Below are positions 3,540-55,837 of a stretch of DNA of 64,000 nucleotides, piece after piece; the stretch's first letter is position 1, and the number at the start of each line of letters is the position of its first letter. The position numbers and the translations under genes are program-made. The notes under the pieces are model-generated. The model saw only the letters and a program-made list of their open reading frames with translations, was not told where the DNA came from and made no database searches. Origin of the DNA: an archaeon (lineage in GTDB: Archaea > Nanobdellota > Nanobdellia > Pacearchaeales > GW2011-AR1); assembly GCA_043821585.1 (NCBI GenBank), contig JBDRCQ010000015.1, positions 2,909 through 66,908 on the forward strand, in the 5' to 3' direction.

Positions 3540-4931
3540 ATGGAATTGAAACTGTTTAACACTCTGACGCGGAAGAAAGATGTTTTCAAGCCGATAAAGA
3601 AGGGCGAGGTTGGAATGTATTCTTGTGGACCGACTGTTTATTGGTATCAGCACATAGGTAACTTGAGAGCTTATTTGTTTGCGGATACTTTGAAGAGGGT
3701 TTTGGAATATAATGGGCTGAAAGTTAAACATGTCGTGAATGTTACGGATGTTGGGCACCTGACCTCTGATGCGGACGAGGGTGATGATAAAATGGAGGCG
3801 GCGGCCAGGAAGGAGGGTAAGAAGGCGGAGGAGATTGCGGAGTTTTATTTTAAGGTTTTTAGGGAAGACATGAAAAAGTTGAACATTAAAGAGCCGAGTG
3901 TTTGGTGTAAGGCGACTGACCACATAAAAGAGCAAATTGGATTAGTTGAGAAGCTGGAAGAGAGGGGATTTACATATGAGACGTCTGACGGGATTTATTT
4001 TGATTCTTCAAAGTTCAAAGATTATGGGAAGTTGGCTAAACTTAGGATTGAAGGGTTGGAAGAAGGAAAGAGGATTTCCGCTGGGGAGAAAAGGAATAAG
4101 ACCGACTTCGCTTTGTGGAAATTTTCTGAGAAGCCTGGTTTGAGGCAACAAGAGTGGGAGTCGCCTTGGGGTGTTGGTTTTCCAGGGTGGCACATTGAAT
4201 GTTCTGCTATGAGCATGAAATACCTTGGAGAGAGTTTTGATATCCATACAGGAGGGGAAGATCATGTGCCGATTCATCATACTAATGAAATTGCGCAGAG
4301 CGAGTGTGCTACCGGAAAGAAGTTTGTGAATTATTGGATGCATAATGCGTTTTTGGTGAACCGGGCTGGAGAGAAGGTTTCGAAGTCTAAGGGGGGGTTG
4401 TTCACTGTTTCGGAGCTTGAGGAGAAAGGGTACGATCCGCTTGATTTTAGGTATTTATTTCTGTTGACACATTATCGGAAGCCTCTGAAGTTTTCTTTAG
4501 AAGGTCTTGATGCGGCGAAGACAGGTCATGGCAGATTGAAGAAGAAAGTCCTTGAATTGAAGGTGGAAAAGCATAAAGGGCAGGATAACTCTGGAGAGTA
4601 TGAGGATAGGTTTGTGGGTGCAGTGAATGATGATTTGAATACGCCTGCTGCCTTAGGAATTGTTTGGGAAATGTTGGATGATTTCAATTTTGATGCTAAA
4701 AAGAAACTGAATCTTTTGGAAAAGTTTGATTCTGTTCTTGGGTTGAATGTTGGGGGCATGAAGGAAGAGAAAATTGATGTTCCGAAAGAGGTTCAAGATT
4801 TAGTCGATGAGCGGGAAAAGTTGAGGAAAGCGAAGATGTGGGCAGAGTCTGACTTGTTTAGGGAAAGGATTTTGGAAAAGGGCTTTAGGGTGGCGGATGG
4901 TCCGGATGGGCCTAAATTAGAGAAGGCTTAG
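3540..4931 (+). CDS. cysS: cysteinyl-tRNA synthetase
   Basis: [20 protein letters not shown] (HIGH region), Zn-binding CSAM, and KVSKSKGG (KMSKS). Confidence 0.9.
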
Positions 4932-7281: not shown

Positions 7282-7365
7282 GGAAACAGTTTGTCTCGTT
7301 GTTTGATTATCTTCTTATTCCAGCCCACAAACCTTTAAAATCTATTATTTCTCTCTATCTTTAGG

Positions 7366-7379
7366 CCGATGTTGGGCAA
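7366..7379 (+). repeat. duplicated tRNA 5' fragment (GCCGATGTTGGGCA), identical to the 5' end of the tRNA-like gene at 7464
   Basis: Exact 14-nt copy. Downstream sequence shares GAGCAAGT with the tRNA but lacks a T-arm. Confidence 0.5.
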
Positions 7380-7463
7380 AGTGAATTGCCATGCAATTCT
7401 CATTCGAACACGAGCAAGTCCGCATTCGAGTGGCGTCCACTGCCGGTTGATAAAAACGTACAT

Positions 7464-7545
7464 GCCGATGTTGGGCAGTGGTAGCCCGCTTGCTTGGAGA
7501 GCAAGTTTCTTCACCGATATGCAGGTTCGATTCCTGCCATCGGCG
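7464..7545 (+). tRNA. atypical tRNA-like gene. The anticodon loop reads GGA (Ser), but the D-arm is class I and the 15-nt variable region is unstructured.
   Basis: Acceptor GCCGATG/CATCGGC plus G73. D-arm GGGC-AGTGGTA-GCCC. Anticodon stem CTTGC/GCAAG with loop TTGGAGA. T-arm GCAGG-TTCGATT-CCTGC. Whether it is an intact tRNA cannot be judged by eye. Confidence 0.5.
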
Positions 7546-7624
7546 TTTAGAATCTCACCTGGAATACTCACTTCGTTCGCATACGACTCGCTTGTGGCTG
7601 TCGGATACTCACTTCGTTCGCATA

Positions 7625-7648
7625 CAGGTTCGATTCCTGCTATCGGCG
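7625..7648 (+). repeat. duplicated, slightly degenerate tRNA 3' fragment (CAGGTTCGATTCCTGCTATCGGCG)
   Basis: Copy of the T-arm and 3' acceptor of the upstream tRNA with 2 substitutions. It is preceded by two 21-bp direct repeats ATACTCACTTCGTTCGCATAC (7564-7584, 7604-7624). Confidence 0.5.
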
Positions 7649-7652
7649 TTTT

Positions 7653-8328
7653 TTATTCGGGCCGGGTTCTTAGCATTTTGTATGTTTGTTCATGCTGTGC
7701 TATTTTGGTTTCAAGATCCGCGATAATCTGCTGATGAATTGTCTCTGCGTCTTGTGTGCCATCGACAACCATTATTCTACTAGGTTCTTTTGCTGCTATT
7801 TCTAAGAATCCTTGTCTTACTGCTTGGTGGAATTCATAGTTTTTTCTTTCCATTCTGTCTGGCTCTCTTCCCACCCTCCCCATACCTATTTCTACCGGAA
7901 CATCCATAAAATAAGATCTGTTTGGGACAAGCTCTTCTGTCGCGAGACGCCCGCATTGTTCAACATATTCTGAAGAGACTCTTCCTGCTACCCCTTTAAG
8001 CTCTTGTCGCATCAACAAATCTATCTAGAAAGACGAGTCTGCCTTTAGCTAAGGCTGGTTTGATTACTTCATGTACTAACTGGGCCCTTGAACTCATGAA
8101 TAAGAAAACCTCAGTTAGGGGGGCCATTTCTTCTGCATCAAAGTGCAATAAAAGGTGCCTTATATGGTCTCCAATTTTTGTCCCACCTGGATCTCTTGCT
8201 CTTATCACTTCATAGCCTTTTTCTCTAAAATGCCTCTCTGCTAGATTTAGTTGAGTGCCTTTGCCGCTGCCATCAGGGCCGTCAAAATGCGCAAAAAACC
8301 CCTTATATTCACCTCTATCTTTAGCCAT
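7653..8328 (-). pseudogene. tmk: thymidylate kinase, frameshifted (two overlapping ORFs)
   Basis: ORF 8328-7996 holds the N-terminal half (DGPDGSGKGTQ P-loop, RDPGGT, DRFVDATRA). ORF 8018-7653 holds the C-terminal half in another frame (..KGVAGRVSSEYVEQ.., lid region). A single-base deletion in GCTTAAAGGGG would restore DATRAYKGVAG. Confidence 0.7.
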
Positions 8329-8444: not shown

Positions 8445-10226
8445 ATGTCTAAAGGGAGAGTGATGAAGAATTTTGATGCGGGGGAGGAAGAACTGCTTAG
8501 GGGGTTCTTGTTTACTAATCCTGGTGGGGATGATGGCTTTGTTTATCCGCAGGAGTTGGTTGTAACGGAAGAGCTAGCGCCTTTGATGTCTGCTTATTCT
8601 AGGTCACATGTTCCTTTTCAGGAAAGGGTTTTGACCTATCTTGATAGGCATAAAGATGAGCAGACCAGAGCCATGTTGCCTTTGATTCCGCAATTAATGG
8701 ACATAACCAGGAATCCTGATGGGACTTTGAGGTTGACGGCTAAGACTGCAATATTCAATAGGCAATGGCCTCAGAGACATGGGCATGATTCGATTAAGGA
8801 AGAGGTTCCTCTTGTTGGACACTCGGAGAGGATATCTGACATAACTGGCAAGAGGATTACGGGACATCCGTTAAATCATCCGCAGGTTAAGTCTACGAGG
8901 TATTTGCATTTTGGGAGGGGGGATAATGTGGAGGACGAAGATTTGAGGGCGTTGGATCAAGGAGGCAGATTTTTAGAGTATCAGGATTGGATGAATCAGA
9001 GATATGTTGATATGACTGGGAGGCTTAGAGATGTTGTTTTCGATCATTCGGATACGGCAAGGGTTGTGGAGTTTTTGAGGAGGCCTGAGAACGTTGAGGC
9101 AGAAGTTGAAGCACAGATGGATGAAATGAAGGCTGTTAGGGATGGTTATGAACCGAGTGAAGGGGATCGAGACAGGGCGAGGGAGAGGGTTTTGAAGGGT
9201 TTGGAAGATGAAGGGGTTAGGAAGGCGGTGGGAAATTTTGTTTTGGATTCTTCAAGAATTTATTTGACGGCGGCTACTAAAACTTCCTTGGGTTTTGTTG
9301 CAGATGCTAGGACTTTGGAGAGCATTCTTACAGGGATGATTTCTTCTCAACGTTCAGAAGATGTTAGGAGGGGTCGGGCCTTGTGGGAACAAGCTCAGAA
9401 AGTGGCGCCTGTTTTGTTGGGTGAGAAAAGTCATGTTAGAGTTGATGCATGGAGGCAAAAGAATGAAACAGAACTTAGAGAGTTTCTGCAGGAAAGATTT
9501 GCGGGAGTTGAACCTCTTGAAGGGAAGCCGAGGGTTAGGGTTTGGGATCCTACAACTTTTAAGATGTATGATGATCGATTTAATGCGGCGATGGTTGCTT
9601 TTCCTTATTTGGATCTTAGTGTGGGCCAGATTGCTGATGAGATTTCTGCGGGAGATGCTGTGGAAATTTTAGAAAGGGCTCATAAAAATAGAGGACAATA
9701 CGATTTGGTTCATCCGGCGATCGCACATGGAGGGCTAATGTCTGAGTTTGTTATGGGCTATCATGGTTATAGGGATTTGTTTAGACATAGGAGGGGTTCG
9801 AGATCGGTGCAACTTTTGACCACGCGATTGGGTTTTGAGGTTCCTAAAATCTTTGAGACGTTTGGGATGGGTGATGAAGTTAGGGCTGATATGGAAAAGG
9901 CTGCGGAGATTTATGAACTTGCTAGGGAGCAGGATCCACATGTTGCGGAGAAGGTTGTGCCTTTTGGAGCTTTATGTAGATCGTTGCATTCTTGGCAGCC
10001 TGATCAGATGGCTTATGTGGCAAGGCTGAGGACGAATGCGGCCAGAGGGAATATTAGTTATGTTAACGTTGCTAGGGACATGATTGGACAAGTTGCTGAC
10101 TTGATGCCTGAAACTGCAAGATACTTTAGGGCTGATACGCAGGAGTACCCGGCGCATTTGTGGAAGAGGGGATATGAGTGGTATGATTCTGAAAGAAGAG
10201 GTAGAGATGAGAGTAAAGATAGTTAA
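8445..10226 (+). CDS. large hypothetical protein with a divergent ThyX (Thy1)-like C-terminal domain
   Basis: The C-terminal ~200 aa reads AHGGLMSEFVMGYHGYRDLFRHRRGSRSVQ ... VVPFGALCRSLHSWQPDQMAYVARLRTNAARGNISYVNVARDMIGQVADLMPE. This parallels the ThyX segment GHFSVLEH..RHRxxS..., ..VLP...R......N.R.W.HFI.MR...A..EIR.LA. The N-terminal ~390 aa is unrecognised. The locus is GC-richer than its flanks. Confidence 0.5.
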   Translation: MSKGRVMKNFDAGEEELLRGFLFTNPGGDDGFVYPQELVVTEELAPLMSAYSRSHVPFQERVLTYLDRHKDEQTRAMLPLIPQLMDITRNPDGTLRLTAKTAIFNRQWPQRHGHDSIKEEVPLVGHSERISDITGKRITGHPLNHPQVKSTRYLHFGRGDNVEDEDLRALDQGGRFLEYQDWMNQRYVDMTGRLRDVVFDHSDTARVVEFLRRPENVEAEVEAQMDEMKAVRDGYEPSEGDRDRARERVLKGLEDEGVRKAVGNFVLDSSRIYLTAATKTSLGFVADARTLESILTGMISSQRSEDVRRGRALWEQAQKVAPVLLGEKSHVRVDAWRQKNETELREFLQERFAGVEPLEGKPRVRVWDPTTFKMYDDRFNAAMVAFPYLDLSVGQIADEISAGDAVEILERAHKNRGQYDLVHPAIAHGGLMSEFVMGYHGYRDLFRHRRGSRSVQLLTTRLGFEVPKIFETFGMGDEVRADMEKAAEIYELAREQDPHVAEKVVPFGALCRSLHSWQPDQMAYVARLRTNAARGNISYVNVARDMIGQVADLMPETARYFRADTQEYPAHLWKRGYEWYDSERRGRDESKDS

Positions 10227-10875
10227 GAGGATTCCATTTGAGGATTTGAGGAAAATGATAGCAGAGGTTCCTTTGATGAAACCTGCTGCTGACGGTTCTC
10301 AGATTCATCCTTATAGGAATGCAAAGATTGGTTTGAGGCAGTTTAGTGCAGACCATGTCAACCCCCCTACTTTTTATCTGATTAGGCGAAATCTAGAAAT
10401 TCAGAGAGCTTTAAGGAGTCATCTGATGGCCGATCATGGAATTGATCCGTTGCGTTTGAGTGGCGCTTTGGAGATAAGGAACGAGAATGGGGAAATCTGG
10501 ACATTGACTCCTCCGATAGTTGAGTTTACTCCGAGGCACGTATTTTATGTTCCGCAACCTGGAGAATTGGATCATGGTCAAAGGAGGACGAGGATTTATG
10601 TTCCTTTGATTTGTGATGGGGCGCATAGAGTTGGCGTGGCGAGAGAAGCTGGAGGAGATTTTATTGGAGTTTCCATTGAGGGAGCGGACGACGCTTATCC
10701 TTATTACGCACACCCTAACGGGTGGGGCGACGTTAAAATTGTGGACGAGGTTCCGGGAACTATGGACGAAAAGAAAATGTATCTTCTAGCAGATTCTTAT
10801 GCGCTGTATCGGGACTTTAGCAGGATCGGGTGTGGTAAACCGAGACATGTTGGGGAGGGTGATAAGGGTGGCTAA
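10174..10875 (+). CDS. ParB/Srx-like nuclease-domain protein (start may be ATG 10207)
   Basis: LICDGAHRVGVAREAGGDFIGV resembles the ParB/sulfiredoxin signature (DGxHRxxAA..xG). Overlaps the upstream gene's end and the downstream gene's start. Confidence 0.45.
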   Translation: MSGMILKEEVEMRVKIVKRIPFEDLRKMIAEVPLMKPAADGSQIHPYRNAKIGLRQFSADHVNPPTFYLIRRNLEIQRALRSHLMADHGIDPLRLSGALEIRNENGEIWTLTPPIVEFTPRHVFYVPQPGELDHGQRRTRIYVPLICDGAHRVGVAREAGGDFIGVSIEGADDAYPYYAHPNGWGDVKIVDEVPGTMDEKKMYLLADSYALYRDFSRIGCGKPRHVGEGDKGG

Positions 10876-11482
10876 GCTTATTCATTTGGTTGGGTCTTCT
10901 GGGACTGGCAAGGGGAGTGTTCATAAGTATCTTGTTGGATATTTGAGGGGACAAGGGGGGAGTGTTGTAGAATTGGTTGAGCCGCCGGAACCTTTTCACC
11001 AGTTCATTAAAAATTATCGTTTGAGGCCAGATAAGGATGCGCTTGTTGAAGCGGCGATGTTTGCGACTGCGAGATTGTGGCTTTATGAAACTCAGGTTAT
11101 GCCAAGACTTGAGGATCCTAATTTGGTTTTTTTGTCAGATAGGGGTTTGTTGGATTCTTTTGTCTATCAGGGAGTTCTTGGAGGTGTTGGTGTTGAAACT
11201 GTTCAAAGATTGAATCAGCATGTGCCTTTGCCTGATTTGGCTATCGGACTGATTGTTGATGGGGTAGAAGGGAATAGGAGGGTTTTGGAGAGGAGGGGGG
11301 CGACTGGTGAGGCGTTAAGTGCTAACGAAACTGCTGCGGGGATTGCTAGAGTTTCTAATGCTTATGCGGGAATAGGGTTCACTTTTCCGGACATGAATTA
11401 TCGGACAATTGATACAACTTCGATGACTCTTGATGAAGTGAAGGATGTTGCTCGGAGTTACGTTGATGAGGTGTTGGCATGA
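10847..11482 (+). CDS. thymidylate-kinase-like dNMP kinase (second, divergent Tmk paralog; start 10847 ATG or 10868 GTG)
   Basis: P-loop LVGSSGTGKGSV and FLSDRGLLDSFVYQG (the DRY..S..YQG motif of the Tmk family). Confidence 0.7.
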   Translation: MLGRVIRVAKLIHLVGSSGTGKGSVHKYLVGYLRGQGGSVVELVEPPEPFHQFIKNYRLRPDKDALVEAAMFATARLWLYETQVMPRLEDPNLVFLSDRGLLDSFVYQGVLGGVGVETVQRLNQHVPLPDLAIGLIVDGVEGNRRVLERRGATGEALSANETAAGIARVSNAYAGIGFTFPDMNYRTIDTTSMTLDEVKDVARSYVDEVLA

Positions 11483-12123
11483 GTGGGGGGCTTGTTGATG
11501 CTGTCGGTTTTGATCTTGATGGTACGCTTTATACATTAAATGACGGGATTAATGATAGGATAAGGCAGCATGCCTGTCAAACTGCTGCAGGTATTTTGTC
11601 TAGACCTTATGAATGGGTTAGGGCTGAATTTGAAAGGCATTTTGCTGAGACTGGAAGTGGAAGAATTTCTTTGGAACAAATGGGAATTGATAATGGCAGG
11701 GAAATTGTGCAGGTTGCGTTGGAGGAGGCAGATATTGGCCCTTTATTGAATAGAGATGGCGCTTTGGCGGGGATGCTTGGTAGGCTTGGGGAGAGATTTA
11801 ATCTTTATTTGATTACTAGCAGTCCAAGGGGGAGCGCGGAATCGAAGCTTGCACATTTAGGGGTTAATTTGGATGTTTTTGATCCTCGTATTTATGGAGA
11901 AAGCCCTTTGTCTAGAAGGGATGGGTCTGCTTTTAGACATGTAGCTACAACCTATGGCATTGCTCTGCCGAGGATGATGTTTGTGGGTGATCGAGAGAAA
12001 GTTGATATCTTTCCTGCGCAGAGTCTGGGGTTAAAGACTGCGATGGTTAATGGGATGTCGGAACGTGCAGATTATAACCTGGGAAGTATTTATGAGTTAG
12101 AGGGTGTTTTACTCGGGACGTGA
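11479..12123 (+). CDS. HAD-superfamily hydrolase/phosphatase
   Basis: GFDLDGTLY (motif I), LITSSP, GDREKVDI (motif IV). ATGA start overlap with the upstream kinase. Confidence 0.75.
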   Translation: MSGGLVDAVGFDLDGTLYTLNDGINDRIRQHACQTAAGILSRPYEWVRAEFERHFAETGSGRISLEQMGIDNGREIVQVALEEADIGPLLNRDGALAGMLGRLGERFNLYLITSSPRGSAESKLAHLGVNLDVFDPRIYGESPLSRRDGSAFRHVATTYGIALPRMMFVGDREKVDIFPAQSLGLKTAMVNGMSERADYNLGSIYELEGVLLGT

Positions 12124-12729
12124 TTTGACATAGTCTTTTATAAACGGCCAACTGATTTGTGTCCAGCTTTCTATGGTGTTTTCCGGATTGCTGAAGGTTT
12201 TTTCTATTTCGTCTACTAATAAGAATTCTCCGTGAGCCATGTCCTCTGCAGGCTTGATGTCTTCGGTTGTTTCTGCTAAGGCAACGACTCCGAAATGGAC
12301 CTTTCCAACTTCTTCTGAGTCGTCGTTTATGAAGCCAATGAATTTGGGTGAAGGATAATTTTCCATGATAACTTCTTCTTTCATTTCGCGCATCATTGCT
12401 GCAGCTATTGGGTCTTTTGTATGTTCTTCAGTGTCGCGGTCGATGTGTCCACCAACGCCGCCCGAGAATTTATTGTAGAGCCTGCCTTCGTTTCCAGTTT
12501 TTGCTCTTTTGTAGATGAATACTTTTTTTGTTTTTGGGTTAATTATCCAGACGTAGGGAATTATTTGTTGGAACTCTTTGTTGTTTTCTAATTCATCTGT
12601 TCTATCTTGGTATTCTAGTTTTTCTAAAATCGTGGGGATGAAGTCATTTTCTTTTATTGGGCAAAAGCCTTGAAATGTTTTGTCTTTGAATAGCTCCTCT
12701 CTTTTTACGCATAGGATGTCTCGTGACAT
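12109..12729 (-). CDS. Nudix hydrolase
   Basis: GGVGGHIDRDTEEHTKDPIAAAMMREMKEEV fits the Nudix box GX5EX7REUXEEXGU. The 3' end overlaps the HAD gene by 15 nt (convergent). Confidence 0.75.
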   Translation of the reverse strand: MSRDILCVKREELFKDKTFQGFCPIKENDFIPTILEKLEYQDRTDELENNKEFQQIIPYVWIINPKTKKVFIYKRAKTGNEGRLYNKFSGGVGGHIDRDTEEHTKDPIAAAMMREMKEEVIMENYPSPKFIGFINDDSEEVGKVHFGVVALAETTEDIKPAEDMAHGEFLLVDEIEKTFSNPENTIESWTQISWPFIKDYVKSRPE

Positions 12730-38587: not shown

Positions 38588-39301
38588 TTGTTAGCTGGAA
38601 TTGTGGAAATAAACCATTACGAAGATGGCTCTCAGAATCCAAGTAGGCAGGATGAATTTTTGAGAGTTGTGGATATTCTTGAGCAAATTAGGGGGGCGGA
38701 TGGTGCTATTGTGGGAAAACTGGAAGGCCGGGTGAGTGAAGATTTAAAGGAAAGACTAAGGGACACTTATAAGCGGGCGGGCATGGACGTTAAGGATAGC
38801 CAGATTGATGCGGCTATTGAGCAACATAATTCGGGGAAGTGGGATTTTGAGCCGCCAGAGGGAGGAACAACTGTGGCAAGGTTGTATGTAAATCGGGGAA
38901 GGGTTTTCTGGAGGAGGATTGTCCCGGCTATTGCACTGGCAGGTGCTGCTTGGTTAGGTTGGACGGGTGTAAAGGCAGGCGTCAGAAATCATCATGAGGC
39001 TCAGGAAGCAACAGTAGAACAGGCGGTTGAGCAAGCCTATGAAGAGCGAGCGGAATTAGAACACTCTGTTGAGAGGATTCTATCTTCTCCGTTTGCTCTT
39101 GAGCTGCCTGAATCAGAATCAAGAAAATTGAACTTTGTTGTGGAGTCTGCCCAGGGACAGTTTGACGCAACAGACAATTTCTTTACAGAGTTTTGCCCAG
39201 AGGGCAAGGCGGATATTTTTGTTACAGCTGAGAATTATGCAGATGTGCGAGGCAGGCTTGAAAATACAGTGCAAATAATTTCTGGTGGGAAGGAGATTTA
39301 G
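38588..39301 (+). CDS. hypothetical protein with one central TM helix
   Basis: ORF. TM segment VPAIALAGAAWLGWTGV. First gene of a GC-richer four-gene block. Confidence 0.5.
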   Translation: MLAGIVEINHYEDGSQNPSRQDEFLRVVDILEQIRGADGAIVGKLEGRVSEDLKERLRDTYKRAGMDVKDSQIDAAIEQHNSGKWDFEPPEGGTTVARLYVNRGRVFWRRIVPAIALAGAAWLGWTGVKAGVRNHHEAQEATVEQAVEQAYEERAELEHSVERILSSPFALELPESESRKLNFVVESAQGQFDATDNFFTEFCPEGKADIFVTAENYADVRGRLENTVQIISGGKEI

Positions 39302-39318
39302 AGGGGGCAAGGAAACTT

Positions 39319-40155
39319 TTGAAAGATCATGAACAATATGGTGTTGTTGGCACTAGTCTAGACAACTTAATATCCCAGATCAGGCGCATGGAAGCTCCAG
39401 ATATTTTGAGAATGCGAGCGGAGATAGTTTATCAGGATGGAAGGGACAGTATTGAAAATAGGCAGCTTGATTCTGCACAAGCATCTAATAATCGATTGAT
39501 GGGGGCTGTTCAGGATTGCTCCGATTTTACAGACATTTCAGGAAGGGTTGACAAGGTATATGGTGTTGTTAAACAGATTGCTGCAGGAAAAGTAGAAAAA
39601 GGAAAAGTTGATGCATTGTACAGAGAGGTCATTGCTGCAGTTTCAACAGGGGAAGTTGAAAGACTGCGAGGTTCATTCTCTAGATTGGAAAATTATGGTG
39701 CCTTGCTGGGTCAAGAATTTAAGATGGTATTTCGTCAGGCACGCCATGAGGGCCAGATGAAAAATGGGGTTGATCGGTACTTTACTGGAGAGAGCGGCAA
39801 GAGGGAGAGCGGAGTTTATATGTTTTCAAGCGCATTTGGACAGAGTGATCAACCATTACGTGTAGACATATACAATGAGGAGACTCAAAGGACCGATGTT
39901 GTTGAAGTGTGGGGCGAAAAAGTTGGAACCAGCACGCGAGATCCCCTGCTGCAAAGGCTGCTTAATGATAAGAAAGACAATGGCCATATTGATAATAGCA
40001 GTCTTAGCGAGGATGAAATGGCTCGTGGGGTCCGTAATGTTGGAGATAACAGGGCCTTTGGGGAAAAGAAAAGGGGATATGAGAGTTTTATTATGTACTT
40101 GACTGATGATCGTGGGCAACCATTTGAAAGGACTGGACAAATTACACAATGGTGA
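39319..40155 (+). CDS. hypothetical protein (278 aa)
   Basis: ORF, same block. Confidence 0.5.
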   Translation: MKDHEQYGVVGTSLDNLISQIRRMEAPDILRMRAEIVYQDGRDSIENRQLDSAQASNNRLMGAVQDCSDFTDISGRVDKVYGVVKQIAAGKVEKGKVDALYREVIAAVSTGEVERLRGSFSRLENYGALLGQEFKMVFRQARHEGQMKNGVDRYFTGESGKRESGVYMFSSAFGQSDQPLRVDIYNEETQRTDVVEVWGEKVGTSTRDPLLQRLLNDKKDNGHIDNSSLSEDEMARGVRNVGDNRAFGEKKRGYESFIMYLTDDRGQPFERTGQITQW

Positions 40156-53839: not shown

Positions 53840-55330
53840 ATGGGATGTAGATGGCTGTTTCTTTTGGGAGGCGTTTTTCTTATTTGTGTCGTCTTTGGTG
53901 GTTTTGTGAGTGCTTATACTCTGACTGATAATGTCGGCGTTGATGAAATTGTCTGCCAAAGTTATGAAGATTCTATGGATATCCGAAGTGTTGATTTTGA
54001 ATACGTTGGAGACCATATGGATGTAGTGATAACTGTTAAGGGCGATGGATCTGGAGAAATTCCGTTGCCAGGGTCTTCTCATTTTGCTTACACTGTTCGA
54101 TTTTCGCAAACTGAACAAGCCAGAATAAATCTGCGGACTTCTGGGAGTGTCGATTGTTTTAATGACTGCCAATCTCCGTCAGTGAGTGGAAATACCTTAA
54201 GGTTTAATTGGAACCAAGCCCCACCGAGTTCCTCAAGAACTGTGAGTGGTAGTGTTGTTTATTGGGGGGGAGATGGAGTTTGTAGAACAGGGGACACGGT
54301 TAGTGGGACTTTGCCTGCTGAAGGTTCTTCTCCTCCGGAGTGCGGAGATGGGAACGTTGACGATGGAGAGGGATGTGATGGAAGTAATCTAAATGGAGAG
54401 ACTTGCCAAACTCAGGGTTTTGACTCTGGGAGTTTAAGTTGTGATTCTAGTTGTAATATTATTACGAGTGGTTGTAGCAACGAAGGAGGGGGTTCGAGCG
54501 AGGAGATGAATGCAGTGAGTTTGTATTTGACTCCGGCGTCTAGTGCTCCAGCAGTTATTGGACAGCCTTATGGAGTTGATGTGATTGTTAAATCTGAGGG
54601 GCAAGATCCTTTTGTGATGGTTAATTTAATACTCCTCTGGGATCCTACAAAGGCTACCCTGAATACAGAGATTGATCTTAGCAATGCAGACTATACAGAC
54701 TGGATGATATCTGAGTTTATTCCAGGTTTTCCTATTAATGATAACTTAGTGGATGGTGATGCAGAGTTTAATTTATTGGCTGGTTATCCTGGTGCTCCAG
54801 TTGCAACTTCCGAAGGAATTAATGTTGGAAGATTTTGGTTGACTCCTTTGACTAGCGATTTTAACTTTAATGTTAAGAAAAGTTATACTGCTCGTGAGGG
54901 TGGTGCGGATTATTACACTACTGCAGTTTATGATGATGAGTACGGCGGGTGGGATATTTTGCCTTACTATGATATTCACGGCGGTGTTGGTGAATTATTT
55001 ATGCCTGATTTGACTCAGCCTTATTGTGGAAATGGGATTGTTGATGAAGGGGAAGAGTGTGATGGTTATGATGGGATAGGGTATTGCGTGGATCTTGGAT
55101 ACTCTGGGGGAATTTATGGCTGCACTACTGATTGTATTGTTGATGTTACTGGATGTGATGGGGCAGAACCTAGCGGATTATGTGGAAATGGCGTTGTTGA
55201 TGAGGGTGAGGCCTGTGATGGAACAGACTTGAGGGGAATGACTTGTGAATTTGTAGGTGGCGGAGATGCGGAAGGAGTTTTGGGCTGTTTAGCAGATTGT
55301 TCTAATTTTGACGTTAGTGGGTGTTATTAA
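53840..55330 (+). CDS. secreted/membrane-anchored protein with three Cys-rich CGNGxVDxGEECDG repeats
   Basis: N-terminal hydrophobic signal/anchor. Repeats ECGDGNVDDGEGCDG, YCGNGIVDEGEECDG, LCGNGVVDEGEACDG resemble the Myxococcus-type cysteine-rich repeat. Confidence 0.65.
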   Translation: MGCRWLFLLGGVFLICVVFGGFVSAYTLTDNVGVDEIVCQSYEDSMDIRSVDFEYVGDHMDVVITVKGDGSGEIPLPGSSHFAYTVRFSQTEQARINLRTSGSVDCFNDCQSPSVSGNTLRFNWNQAPPSSSRTVSGSVVYWGGDGVCRTGDTVSGTLPAEGSSPPECGDGNVDDGEGCDGSNLNGETCQTQGFDSGSLSCDSSCNIITSGCSNEGGGSSEEMNAVSLYLTPASSAPAVIGQPYGVDVIVKSEGQDPFVMVNLILLWDPTKATLNTEIDLSNADYTDWMISEFIPGFPINDNLVDGDAEFNLLAGYPGAPVATSEGINVGRFWLTPLTSDFNFNVKKSYTAREGGADYYTTAVYDDEYGGWDILPYYDIHGGVGELFMPDLTQPYCGNGIVDEGEECDGYDGIGYCVDLGYSGGIYGCTTDCIVDVTGCDGAEPSGLCGNGVVDEGEACDGTDLRGMTCEFVGGGDAEGVLGCLADCSNFDVSGCY

Positions 55331-55441
55331 TTTTTCTGGGTGTGCTGGAAAAATGTACTTTTTGGTGTTGTTTTGTTTAAGAATATCATCGGCTGGGTTG
55401 AAATTAAGAAAACAGTTTAAATAGGCGGTTTGCTTTAATGT

Positions 55442-55837
55442 TTGATGAATTTAATGAGTACAATTCTTTTGGGAGTGCTTGTGATCTTAGTTTTGTTTGT
55501 TGGAGCCTCGTTTTTTGGTAGTTTATTCGAATCGGTAGATAATGGGGGCAAAAATGAAACCTCTTCTTTCGGGGAGTGTTTGACTGAGACAGGCGTAGAA
55601 GTTTACGCTGTTCCAGACTGCGCGCGTTGTGCTGAACAGATTAGGCTGTTTGGAGAAAGTTGGGAGGATTTGAATGTGGTCGAGTGCGATGCAGGGATCT
55701 ATTCAGCCCATAGGGGTATTTGTGAAATGTCTGAGAATTCAGGACAATACATTTGGGTTTTTGGTTCTGGCAAGGTTGTTCCTGGCGTGTTGACTTCTAA
55801 AAGGTTAAGTGAAGAGAGCGGTTGTGAGTTGAACTAA
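55442..55837 (+). CDS. membrane-anchored thioredoxin/glutaredoxin-like protein (CxxC)
   Basis: N-terminal TM, then VYAVPDCARCAEQIRLF, a thioredoxin-fold active-site motif. Confidence 0.6.
   Translation: MMNLMSTILLGVLVILVLFVGASFFGSLFESVDNGGKNETSSFGECLTETGVEVYAVPDCARCAEQIRLFGESWEDLNVVECDAGIYSAHRGICEMSENSGQYIWVFGSGKVVPGVLTSKRLSEESGCELN

Follow-up and report, generated by a model that had tools for sequence, protein, structure and literature searches.

How does a transfer RNA (tRNA) gene come to lie nested between copies of its own two ends? The question is raised by a locus in a 64,000-nucleotide (nt) stretch of archaeal DNA (contig JBDRCQ010000015.1, positions 2,909 to 66,908; hereafter the window, numbered from its first letter), in which a complete tRNA-Ser(GGA) gene is preceded by a duplicate of its 5' end and followed by a duplicate of its 3' end. 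The answer that we tentatively favour, with a confidence that stops somewhat short of probable, is that site-specific att-type recombination struck both ends of the tRNA, leaving the duplicated ends in place while almost all of the inserted DNA was lost. In agreement with an initial annotation made from the letters of the window, ARAGORN (7463-7546) and the Rfam model RF00005 (7464-7545, 60.9 bits, 12 nt being inserted in the variable region) both returned a complete tRNA with a Ser(GGA) anticodon. The parts of the locus, with the evidence for each, are as follows:

7365..7378, plus strand: 5' fragment (F5), tRNA positions 1-14 (repeat finder, motif search)
7379..7463, plus strand: spacer 1, 85 nt, probably within a 99-nt 5' leader (alignment, fold, Rfam)
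7464..7545, plus strand: complete tRNA-Ser(GGA), probable functional gene (ARAGORN, Rfam, minimum free energy (MFE) fold, identity to locus L029, covariation)
7546..7621, plus strand: spacer 2, 76 nt, probably within the 3' trailer (alignment, fold)
7564..7584, plus strand: first 21-nt direct repeat ATACTCACTTCGTTCGCATAC, heading a 41-nt unit at 7564-7604 (repeat finder)
7605..7625, plus strand: second 21-nt direct repeat ATACTCACTTCGTTCGCATAC, overlapping the start of the 3' fragment by 4 nt (repeat finder)
7622..7651, plus strand: 3' fragment (F3), 28/30 identical to 7519-7548

F5, GCCGATGTTGGGCA, is an exact 14-nt duplicate of the tRNA 5' end that comprises the acceptor 5' strand, positions 8-9, the D-stem 5' strand and A14. 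The initial annotation had recognised the duplicate, but it starts at 7365 rather than 7366, with a start-to-start spacing of 99 nt. F3, 103 nt from its original, copies the last 27 nt of the tRNA plus TTT, namely the end of the variable region (its last 3 nt), the whole T arm, the acceptor 3' strand, G73 and TTT. The two substitutions that had been reported for this copy stand, whereas its extent is broader than the start at 7625 implied; a 24-nt core at 7625-7648 holds one mismatch. Both substitutions weaken a tRNA pair, the first turning the first T-stem base from G to A (giving A.C) and the second turning the first base of the acceptor 3' strand from C to T (giving G.U), as would fit an unselected relic.

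Chance does not account for F5, F3 or the 21-mer repeats. When up to two mismatches were allowed, GCCGATGTTGGGCA matched the window, beyond F5 and the tRNA, only at 3744 (two mismatches), and three such matches were reached in 0/100 dinucleotide-preserving shuffles of the window; the shuffles likewise yielded no match to F3 and never gave rise to the 21-mers. This comparison with chance had been set beforehand, and it upheld the flanking matches, including the two 21-bp direct repeats that had been placed between the tRNA and the 3' copy. An assembly artefact was judged unlikely: the repeats are only 14-30 nt long and internal to a contig listed at 275 kb in the protein database, and the architecture is repeated in independent assemblies.

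For comparison, relatives were drawn from loci near the closest homologues of the cysteinyl-tRNA synthetase (CysRS) of the window (3540-4931) and from 38 metagenome contigs retrieved with a degenerate D-arm/anticodon pattern, each locus being given an L number. The nearest CysRS homologues belong to metagenome-assembled genomes (MAGs) of Candidatus Pacearchaeota, Woesearchaeota and Nanoarchaeota, the best at 80-81% identity, which places the window among the DPANN archaea. These relatives provided a reference for the sequences that surround the two fragments:

7334..7340, plus strand: TATA-like element TTTAAAA, 31 nt upstream of F5 (position and conservation)
7649..7654, plus strand: T6 run, probable ancestral terminator, overlapping the tmk stop codon at 7653-7655

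Of 33 relatives, 27 have a TATA-like heptamer (TTTAAAA, TTTATAA, CTTATAA or similar) that starts 31-34 nt ahead of the first tRNA position, and in the window no such box was found at the usual distance from the complete tRNA (7464). By eye, the stretch from the box to F5 resembles the stretch from the box to the tRNA in L029, a scar-free locus whose tRNA is otherwise identical. The complete tRNA is followed by TTTAG only, F3 by TTTTTTATT, the sole proper T run, and in most insert-free relatives a T-rich stretch comes straight after the tRNA. From position and conservation, the element at 7334-7340 is a putative promoter element, and the T6 run at 7649-7654 is a putative terminator. Because these signals flank the fragments, F5 and F3 mark the ends of the ancestral gene, the spacers having been added later inside it. 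The predicted transcript would run from ~7365 to ~7654, a precursor of ~290 nt from which RNase P and RNase Z would release the inner tRNA.

Under att-type recombination, the locus would hold one working tRNA-Ser(GGA) whose original 5' and 3' ends were pushed outward by two short insertions, each of which brought or created a fresh copy of the end that it displaced. The residues would then read, in order, as the ancestral promoter, an orphan 5' piece broken in the D loop, an insert of ~85 nt, the intact gene, an insert of ~76 nt, an orphan 3' piece and the ancestral T-run terminator, with the orphan pieces and spacers having no function of their own. An integrase-type recombinase would be the cause, and the bulk of the element would have been lost later. 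The form of the duplications is consistent with this model, as each repeat is a tRNA end bounded by a loop and by the end of the gene (positions 1-14 on one side; the variable/T-stem boundary to 3 nt past G73 on the other) and the inner tRNA is intact. Archaeal integrases use the region from the T loop to the 3' end, pTN3-like integrases use the 5' half, both kinds of target are known in archaea, and att sites can extend to the D loop (PMC8371274).

Known systems resemble the locus in part. In attL/attR pairs of the SSV, pNOB8, pT26-2 and pTN3 types, as in the window, a tRNA-end repeat runs from a dyad-symmetric arm to the end of the gene and an intact tRNA is rebuilt; the window differs in that only ~80 nt separate the repeats, no integrase or cargo is present and both ends are nested, and the antisense arm copies of its relatives (see below) are not known from att sites. 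At the tRNA-Thr locus of Caldiarchaeum subterraneum, a replaced tRNA gene and an orphan 5' tRNA fragment 1.8 kb upstream of it are separated by an element that encodes a recombinase, and the orphan fragments beside the replaced gene have been explained by a mobile element (Sugahara et al. 2012, PMC3293823). There too an orphan 5' fragment stands upstream of a complete gene for the same tRNA and is read as mobile-element integration, but that locus retains its 1.8-kb element with the recombinase, and introns distinguish the versions of the gene, whereas the insert in the window is 85 nt long and no intron is involved. In the tycheposon islands of Prochlorococcus, partial copies follow a full-length tRNA, and scattered partial tRNAs have been interpreted as traces of successive or older integrations (10.1101/2020.12.28.424599); unlike the window, these islands belong to bacteria, hold 3' fragments only and have kilobase-scale elements separating the copies. 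Duplications of tRNA ends by recombination at tRNA genes are a known kind of feature; miniature scars nested around a single gene at either end, recurring in a DPANN lineage, often together with an antisense arm copy and in some cases with a conserved hairpin module, are undescribed in the literature searched.

That recurrence was extensive, with tRNA debris present at roughly half of ~33 distinct tRNA-Ser(GGA) loci. A second copy of the gene's own 3' end, 12-27 nt long, was found in L007, L036, L090/L092, L102, L103 and L111 (14-27 nt apart from the internally deleted copy in L111); these copies begin in or just before the T loop, after an insert of 45-100 nt, and are followed by a T-rich terminator. 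The tRNA-Ser(CGA) locus L015 carries two 3'-end copies, and L103 carries two identical insert-plus-copy units in tandem. In L088/L118, L095, L099 and L106, the 3' part of a different tRNA-Ser abuts the complete tRNA-Ser(GGA), and reading of the sequences revealed foreign 3' pieces also in L007, L083, L084/L096 and L097. The abutting pieces, with acceptor strands such as GGTCCGGGCG or GGTCTGGGCG, are located as follows:

L088, 13641-13667: foreign 3' piece
L099, 274-300: foreign 3' piece
L106, 3276-3312: foreign 3' piece
L095, 3335-3349: foreign 3' piece

An intact tRNA-Ser(CGA) was also observed 2.7-5.7 kb downstream, in the same orientation, in L029, L036 and L084. Isolated tRNA-Ser 5' or 3' pieces occur far from called tRNAs in L021 (9098-9129, minus strand), L014 (4652-4667, minus strand) and L065 (416-432); these may be additional debris or genes, intron-containing or split, that ARAGORN failed to call.

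On the 5' side, 14-nt copies of the tRNA-Phe 5' end were detected in L048 (~251-264; tRNA at 312-383) and L066 (~942-955; tRNA at 1028-1099), lying 61 nt and 86 nt upstream, respectively, covering positions 1-14 (2-15 in L048) and in both cases preceded by a TATA-like box. As the break falls at D-loop position 14/15 in three unrelated genes and the other boundary falls at the tRNA end, we infer a site-specific process rather than random duplication.

The tRNA-Phe locus L066 bears as well on an explanation that involves no mobile element, in which tandem duplication would have produced three tRNA-plus-spacer units, the first copy then losing everything from position 15 to its end and the last losing positions 1-45. 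In L066, one and the same hairpin-containing sequence stands after both the 5' fragment and the complete tRNA, and the complete gene has a second TATA-like box in front of it. The spacers of the window show a weak collinear similarity to each other (global score 42 versus 32.6 +/- 4.8, p ~0.04 for this score and ~0.04-0.09 overall; best stretch by eye ~20-22 of 30). Moreover, the 41-nt unit at 7564-7604 is repeated in tandem at 7605-7646, each headed by a 21-mer and the second halves, GACTCGCTTGTGGCTGTCGG and AGGTTCGATTCCTGCTATCGG, matching at 13/20 (blastn), while L103 has its two identical modules in tandem. However, the deletions would have to fall exactly at 14/15 in the window, L048 and L066 and exactly at the tRNA ends; the fragments are perfect and then random, their identity (14/14 and 28/30) giving way to random sequence at sharp junctions with no gradient of decay; antisense copies stay unexplained; and the similarity between the spacers is marginal. 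A full-length tandem array of tRNAs is not what the spacers reveal, since in global alignments, sense or antisense, they matched the tRNA no better than shuffles, and we rejected them as decayed tRNA copies. Collinear tRNA-like fragments seen in the spacers by eye (GAGCAAGT, TGCCGGTTGAT) are not trusted. We regard tandem duplication as unlikely, although it retains appreciable weight.

The second half of the first 41-nt unit is a further feature in its own right:

7585..7604, plus strand: candidate older, decayed T-arm/acceptor 3' piece (GACTCGCTTGTGGCTGTCGG, 13/20 to 7626-7646, blastn)

It may tentatively be taken as an older decayed copy of the T-arm/acceptor 3' piece, for which a rough binomial estimate gives ~1e-3.

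The remaining spacer sequence offered few clues. Spacer 1 is not unusually structured (z = -0.82) and spacer 2 is less structured than its shuffles (z = +1.83); Rfam searched at relaxed thresholds (E <= 10) returned nothing but tRNA and no family for the spacers; neither insert (85 and 76 nt) contains an open reading frame (ORF); and the repeat finder detected no terminal inverted repeats at the spacer ends. Bases 19-46 of spacer 1 match, at 23/28, the L015 sequence directly after a tRNA-Ser 3' fragment, and apart from this match the spacers fit no definable family of modules. Short matches to the 21-mer and the spacers in L019, L058, L062 and L071 proved to be unrelated or coding sequence, and a candidate 5.9-kb element in L087 was a chance 11-mer within a coding region.

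Several observations weigh against att-type recombination. No integrase, transposase or Cas1 was recognised by Pfam among all ORFs of at least 230 amino acids (aa) in the window and all neighbours of the tRNA locus, which gave housekeeping genes (six such ORFs have no Pfam match, and smaller ORFs were covered in part), nor was a recombinase recognised among the ORFs checked near the scarred loci L007, L036 and L082. IMG/VR viral contigs, searched with the tRNA halves, the whole-tRNA pattern and the T-arm palindrome, returned only two unrelated palindromes and no attP-like site. The repeats flank neither an element nor remnant genes but inserts of only ~80 nt, and two independent, near-complete losses of an element are required. 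The consistent antisense T-arm copy in the relatives is unpredicted by the classical att model; the inserts of L007, L102 and L103, with their conserved hairpins, resemble complete small modules rather than deletion remnants; and the repetition in L066 of the sequence after the tRNA fits duplication and deletion better. The arrangement MscS-tRNA-tmk was found in no close relative, the MscS homologues (62-66% identity) not lying beside tRNA-Ser, and the exact locus has no occupied/empty pair, although scar-free genes of the L029 type exist elsewhere. Our confidence is limited by the lack of a recombinase, element or attP, by the two near-total losses, by the unpredicted antisense copies and modules, and by L066. 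Of the explanations that the initial annotation had offered, att-site scars are the best supported in kind, but come without an element, an integrase or an occupied/empty pair at this locus; the comparison of the locus across strains that it had proposed yielded the scar-free genes but no relative sharing the gene neighbourhood.

The antisense copies were a widespread feature of the relatives, in many of which the T loop and 3' T-stem strand recur in antisense orientation, often 2-5 nt after the tRNA. A copy matching at least 9/12 positions within 60 nt downstream accompanied 11/71 tRNAs, against 0/71 in the upstream control, with scores of 12/12 in L007 and L103, 11/12 in L082 and 10/12 in L087. 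The loci concerned are:

L007, L103, L082, L087, L102, L111, L105, L043, L122, L072 and L073: antisense T-arm copies downstream of tRNAs

In L036 and L111, the antisense copy tracks T-arm variants private to the locus. The counterpart in the window is faint, consisting of the 8 nt CCTGGAAT placed 13 nt after the tRNA. On its 5' side, an antisense piece mirrors the relatives' antisense copies of the adjacent tRNA end:

7432..7444, plus strand: antisense D-arm copy (inverted repeat, 11/13 to 7474-7486)

In some relatives, the antisense copy forms part of a larger unit. Homologous inserts in L007, L102 and L103 share a three-way fold with 4-6 compensatory pair changes, and the L007-type module folds with z = -3.35. 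The module spans ~65-80 nt in the order antisense T-arm copy, long hairpin, second hairpin and copy of the tRNA 3' end, and belongs to no Rfam family. It was located at the following positions:

L007, 9716-9794, minus strand: module
L103, 206-280 and 286-360, minus strand: modules
L102, 524-603, plus strand: module
L090, 1083-1148, plus strand: module
L111, 1015-1067, plus strand, opposite to its tRNA: module
L089, 2122-2189, minus strand: module

A covariance model of the module, searched against ~1 Mb, matched only beside tRNA-Ser(GGA). The module is inverted in L111, and the match in L089 is weak and lies in the 5' leader, abutting tRNA position 1. The family formed by L007, L102, L103, L111 and L089 thus combines conserved hairpins with tandem arrangement, either orientation and either tRNA end. 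It could be that tRNA genes of Pace- and Woesearchaeota are the target of an undescribed class of insertion modules of ~45-100 nt, with the flanks in the window as a decayed second family, an idea to which we give a low but not trivial probability. Such modules would separate the mature tRNA from its promoter or terminator, would rebuild the end that they displace, and would each place an antisense copy of the neighbouring tRNA arm beside the gene. They might be modules of the precursor RNA, or else non-autonomous elements whose mobility depends on an enzyme of the casposase or integrase kind that cuts with a 13-15-nt stagger.

A more specific version holds that a small, non-autonomous, transposon-like module inserts at tRNA ends by a staggered cut of ~13-15 nt, the spacers in the window being decayed members. 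The 5' duplications are 14 nt long in the window, L048 and L066. If the antisense and T-stem parts are taken as terminal inverted repeats, the target duplications amount to 13 nt in L103 and 14 nt in L036, both straddling the tRNA 3' end; L103 also forms a tandem array, and the module core is found in both orientations (reversed in L111) as well as within a 5' leader (L089). Casposons offer a precedent, with 15-bp duplications that overlap the tRNA 3' end, a requirement for the T-loop region and mini-casposons that were mobilised in vitro (PMC5137440). The likeness extends to a 14-15-nt duplication over a tRNA end, the T-loop region, tandem arrays and minimal elements made of ends only, but casposons are kilobases long, whereas the window lacks terminal inverted repeats, has a 30-nt 3' duplication and contains no detected Cas1 in the ORFs scanned. 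Terminal inverted repeats are arguable only in L036 and L103, and those of L036, like the antisense parts in L111, bear T-arm variants private to the host locus, giving them a locally derived look. The 3' duplication in the window (12-27 nt in relatives) is not 14 nt long, the scanned ORFs of the window and the loci checked encode no recognised Cas1 or transposase, and within the ~1 Mb searched the module was seen only beside tRNA-Ser(GGA). On balance, we find a transposon-like origin improbable.

The same data could also point to a function in RNA, in which tRNA-derived pieces of a structured leader and trailer pair within the precursor and control its folding, processing or stability. The enrichment of the antisense T-arm copy downstream of tRNAs, in some cases a full match, and the stable, compensated fold of the L007-type module are consistent with this, as is the predicted fold of 7365-7648, in which the two orphan pieces pair with each other; the three differences that separate 3' copies from their tRNAs (window, L036, L090) are all compatible with pairing to the 5' strand. 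The spacers of the window, however, are unstructured, lack an Rfam family and are unconserved at other loci, its antisense element on the 3' side is weak, and compensatory changes are equally expected of palindromic DNA sites. Such flanks are missing from about half of the relatives and are therefore dispensable. We consider a functional leader and trailer very doubtful.

The initial annotation had also raised the possibility of a non-canonical intron. In this case, the true gene would be 7365-7648, and the duplicated pieces and spacers would be removed by the splicing endonuclease; taking out 99 nt and 103 nt would leave a tRNA that differs from the inner one at only two positions. DPANN archaea are known for unusual tRNA introns. 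The canonical bulge-helix-bulge (BHB) geometry consists of a 3-nt bulge, a 4-bp helix and a 3-nt bulge at both splice sites, and we scanned for this motif with our own scanner. Among all registers that remove one repeat unit, none in the window combined a helix of 4 bp with flanking helices of at least 2 bp, and no register was common to L007, L036, L090, L102 and L103, with L102 alone giving two isolated hits. The inner cloverleaf is complete without splicing, as its Rfam score attests, and splicing would weaken the T stem and the acceptor stem of the product. As in archaeal BHB introns and split or permuted tRNA genes, extra sequence occurs here at D-loop and T-arm positions in a lineage with odd tRNA genes, but the window lacks the motif, its gene is contiguous and the extra pieces are redundant copies rather than the sole exon. 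The intron explanation is left with hardly any probability.

The initial annotation had found the cloverleaf itself anomalous for a tRNA-Ser and had described a variable stretch unable to form an extra arm. The tRNA has the GGA anticodon and G73 discriminator (G at 7545, after the acceptor stem) of a class II tRNA-Ser. The 4-bp D stem and the 15-nt variable region with its 3-bp stem and tetraloop turned out to be shared by 30/30 distinct relatives from Pace- and Woesearchaeota, whose 7-nt D loops read AGTGGTA or AATGGTA and whose variable regions follow N-T-N-C-C-(tetraloop)-G-G-N-T-N-N. Across 31 distinct sequences, 98.4% of the cells of the cloverleaf including this stem are paired and double changes occur at 13 of its pairs, a level that the shuffled and slid controls came nowhere near; the variable stem covaries at 45:54 among the relatives. 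Within this conserved arm the window carries one defect:

7506..7520, plus strand: variable region TTTCTTCACCGATAT, with the broken pair T7510 x C7515 (alignment of 31 sequences)

The pair concerned, 47:52, is formed by C-G in 29 sequences and by U-G in one, and the window alone leaves it unpaired. Relative to the L084 type TTTCCTCACGGATAT, two bases of the window are substituted, one on either side of the pair (T7510 and C7515). The arm, 15 nt with 2/3 of the lineage-typical pairs kept, is far shorter than that of a textbook class II tRNA yet corresponds to the norm of the lineage, and the earlier claim about the variable stretch holds only in part. The tRNA alone adopts the cloverleaf as its MFE fold (z = -3.42). 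Since the features are common to all relatives, the other stems are intact and the cloverleaf folds by itself, the class I-type D arm without a full extra arm is a lineage trait plus a mild local defect, not an anomaly of the gene.

The broken pair, unique among the 31 sequences and substituted on both sides, also bears on the suggestion that the tRNA is degenerating, according to which the inner copy would be a decaying pseudogene with the functional tRNA-Ser(GGA) elsewhere in the genome. The adjacent tmk is frameshifted, and the inner copy lacks its own promoter at the distance usual in relatives. Against this, the other 23 of the 24 cloverleaf pairs tested and all conserved tertiary bases are intact, the tRNA is identical to that of L029 outside the variable arm, and the ancestral promoter lies just 99 nt upstream in the same orientation. 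The search for other tRNA-Ser genes that had been called for found no second one in the 64-kb window. Degeneration is therefore weakly supported, and we rate a pseudogene as quite improbable.

Beyond the fragments, the surroundings of the gene suggest that the locus has been rearranged. F3 is followed directly by:

7653..8328, minus strand: thymidylate kinase (tmk), as two overlapping ORFs, 7653-8018 and 7996-8328 (PF02223 halves)

The split of tmk is due to either a frameshift or a sequencing error. In L029, L036 and L082, tmk is directly upstream of tRNA-Ser(GGA) and co-directional, whereas in the window it adjoins the tRNA but is convergent, its stop codon overlapping the T run after F3; the tRNA cassette is thus flipped in place relative to these loci. 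Inversions can be integrase-driven (PMC8371274). Synteny with the two closest relatives (L001 and L002, CysRS 80-81%) covers ~1.8-6.1 kb and ends before the locus. In L088, a NUDIX homologue is the upstream neighbour of the tRNA, and the NUDIX gene of the window is 4.5 kb away and inverted; in L082, a ParE toxin-antitoxin pair and a Schlafen/AlbA_2 gene come right after the tRNA. The locus is a rearrangement point.

Other parts of the window were noted in passing. The cluster at 8445-12729, which comprises a 593-aa ThyX-like protein (weak Pfam match), a ParB-CE domain protein, two hydrolases (HAD and NUDIX) and a tmk-like kinase, has a GC content of 0.44-0.46 versus ~0.40 around it, and part of it has homologues upstream of the tRNA-Ser(GGA) of L007; the whole may be a nucleotide or DNA-modification island. 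Another tmk-like gene is located at 10799-11482. Two adjacent ORFs at 38588-40155 encode DUF6384 halves (profile positions 7-142 and 139-287), representing a split gene or a frameshift. GC skew is strongly positive in every 2-kb bin of window positions 1-64000 (0.06-0.37), whatever the gene orientation. A tRNA-Pro(GGG) with a 464-nt intron, called at 55068-55632 by ARAGORN in intron mode, was rejected as a false positive, as it falls in a region encoding a cysteine-rich repeat protein and has no Rfam tRNA match.

Taken alone, the window is a modest curiosity, whereas the pattern across the lineage merits a systematic survey. The lineage-normal shape of this tRNA-Ser bears on recognition by seryl-tRNA synthetase in a large DPANN lineage. 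If the modules of the relatives are mobile, few known tRNA-targeted elements would be smaller, and models that derive tRNA introns, split tRNAs or repeat arrays from integrations would gain a natural intermediate. The tRNA genes in these reduced genomes are probably recombination hot spots at both ends, where miniature scars escape gene-based annotation, would lengthen the tRNA precursor by ~200 nt and coincide with local inversions.

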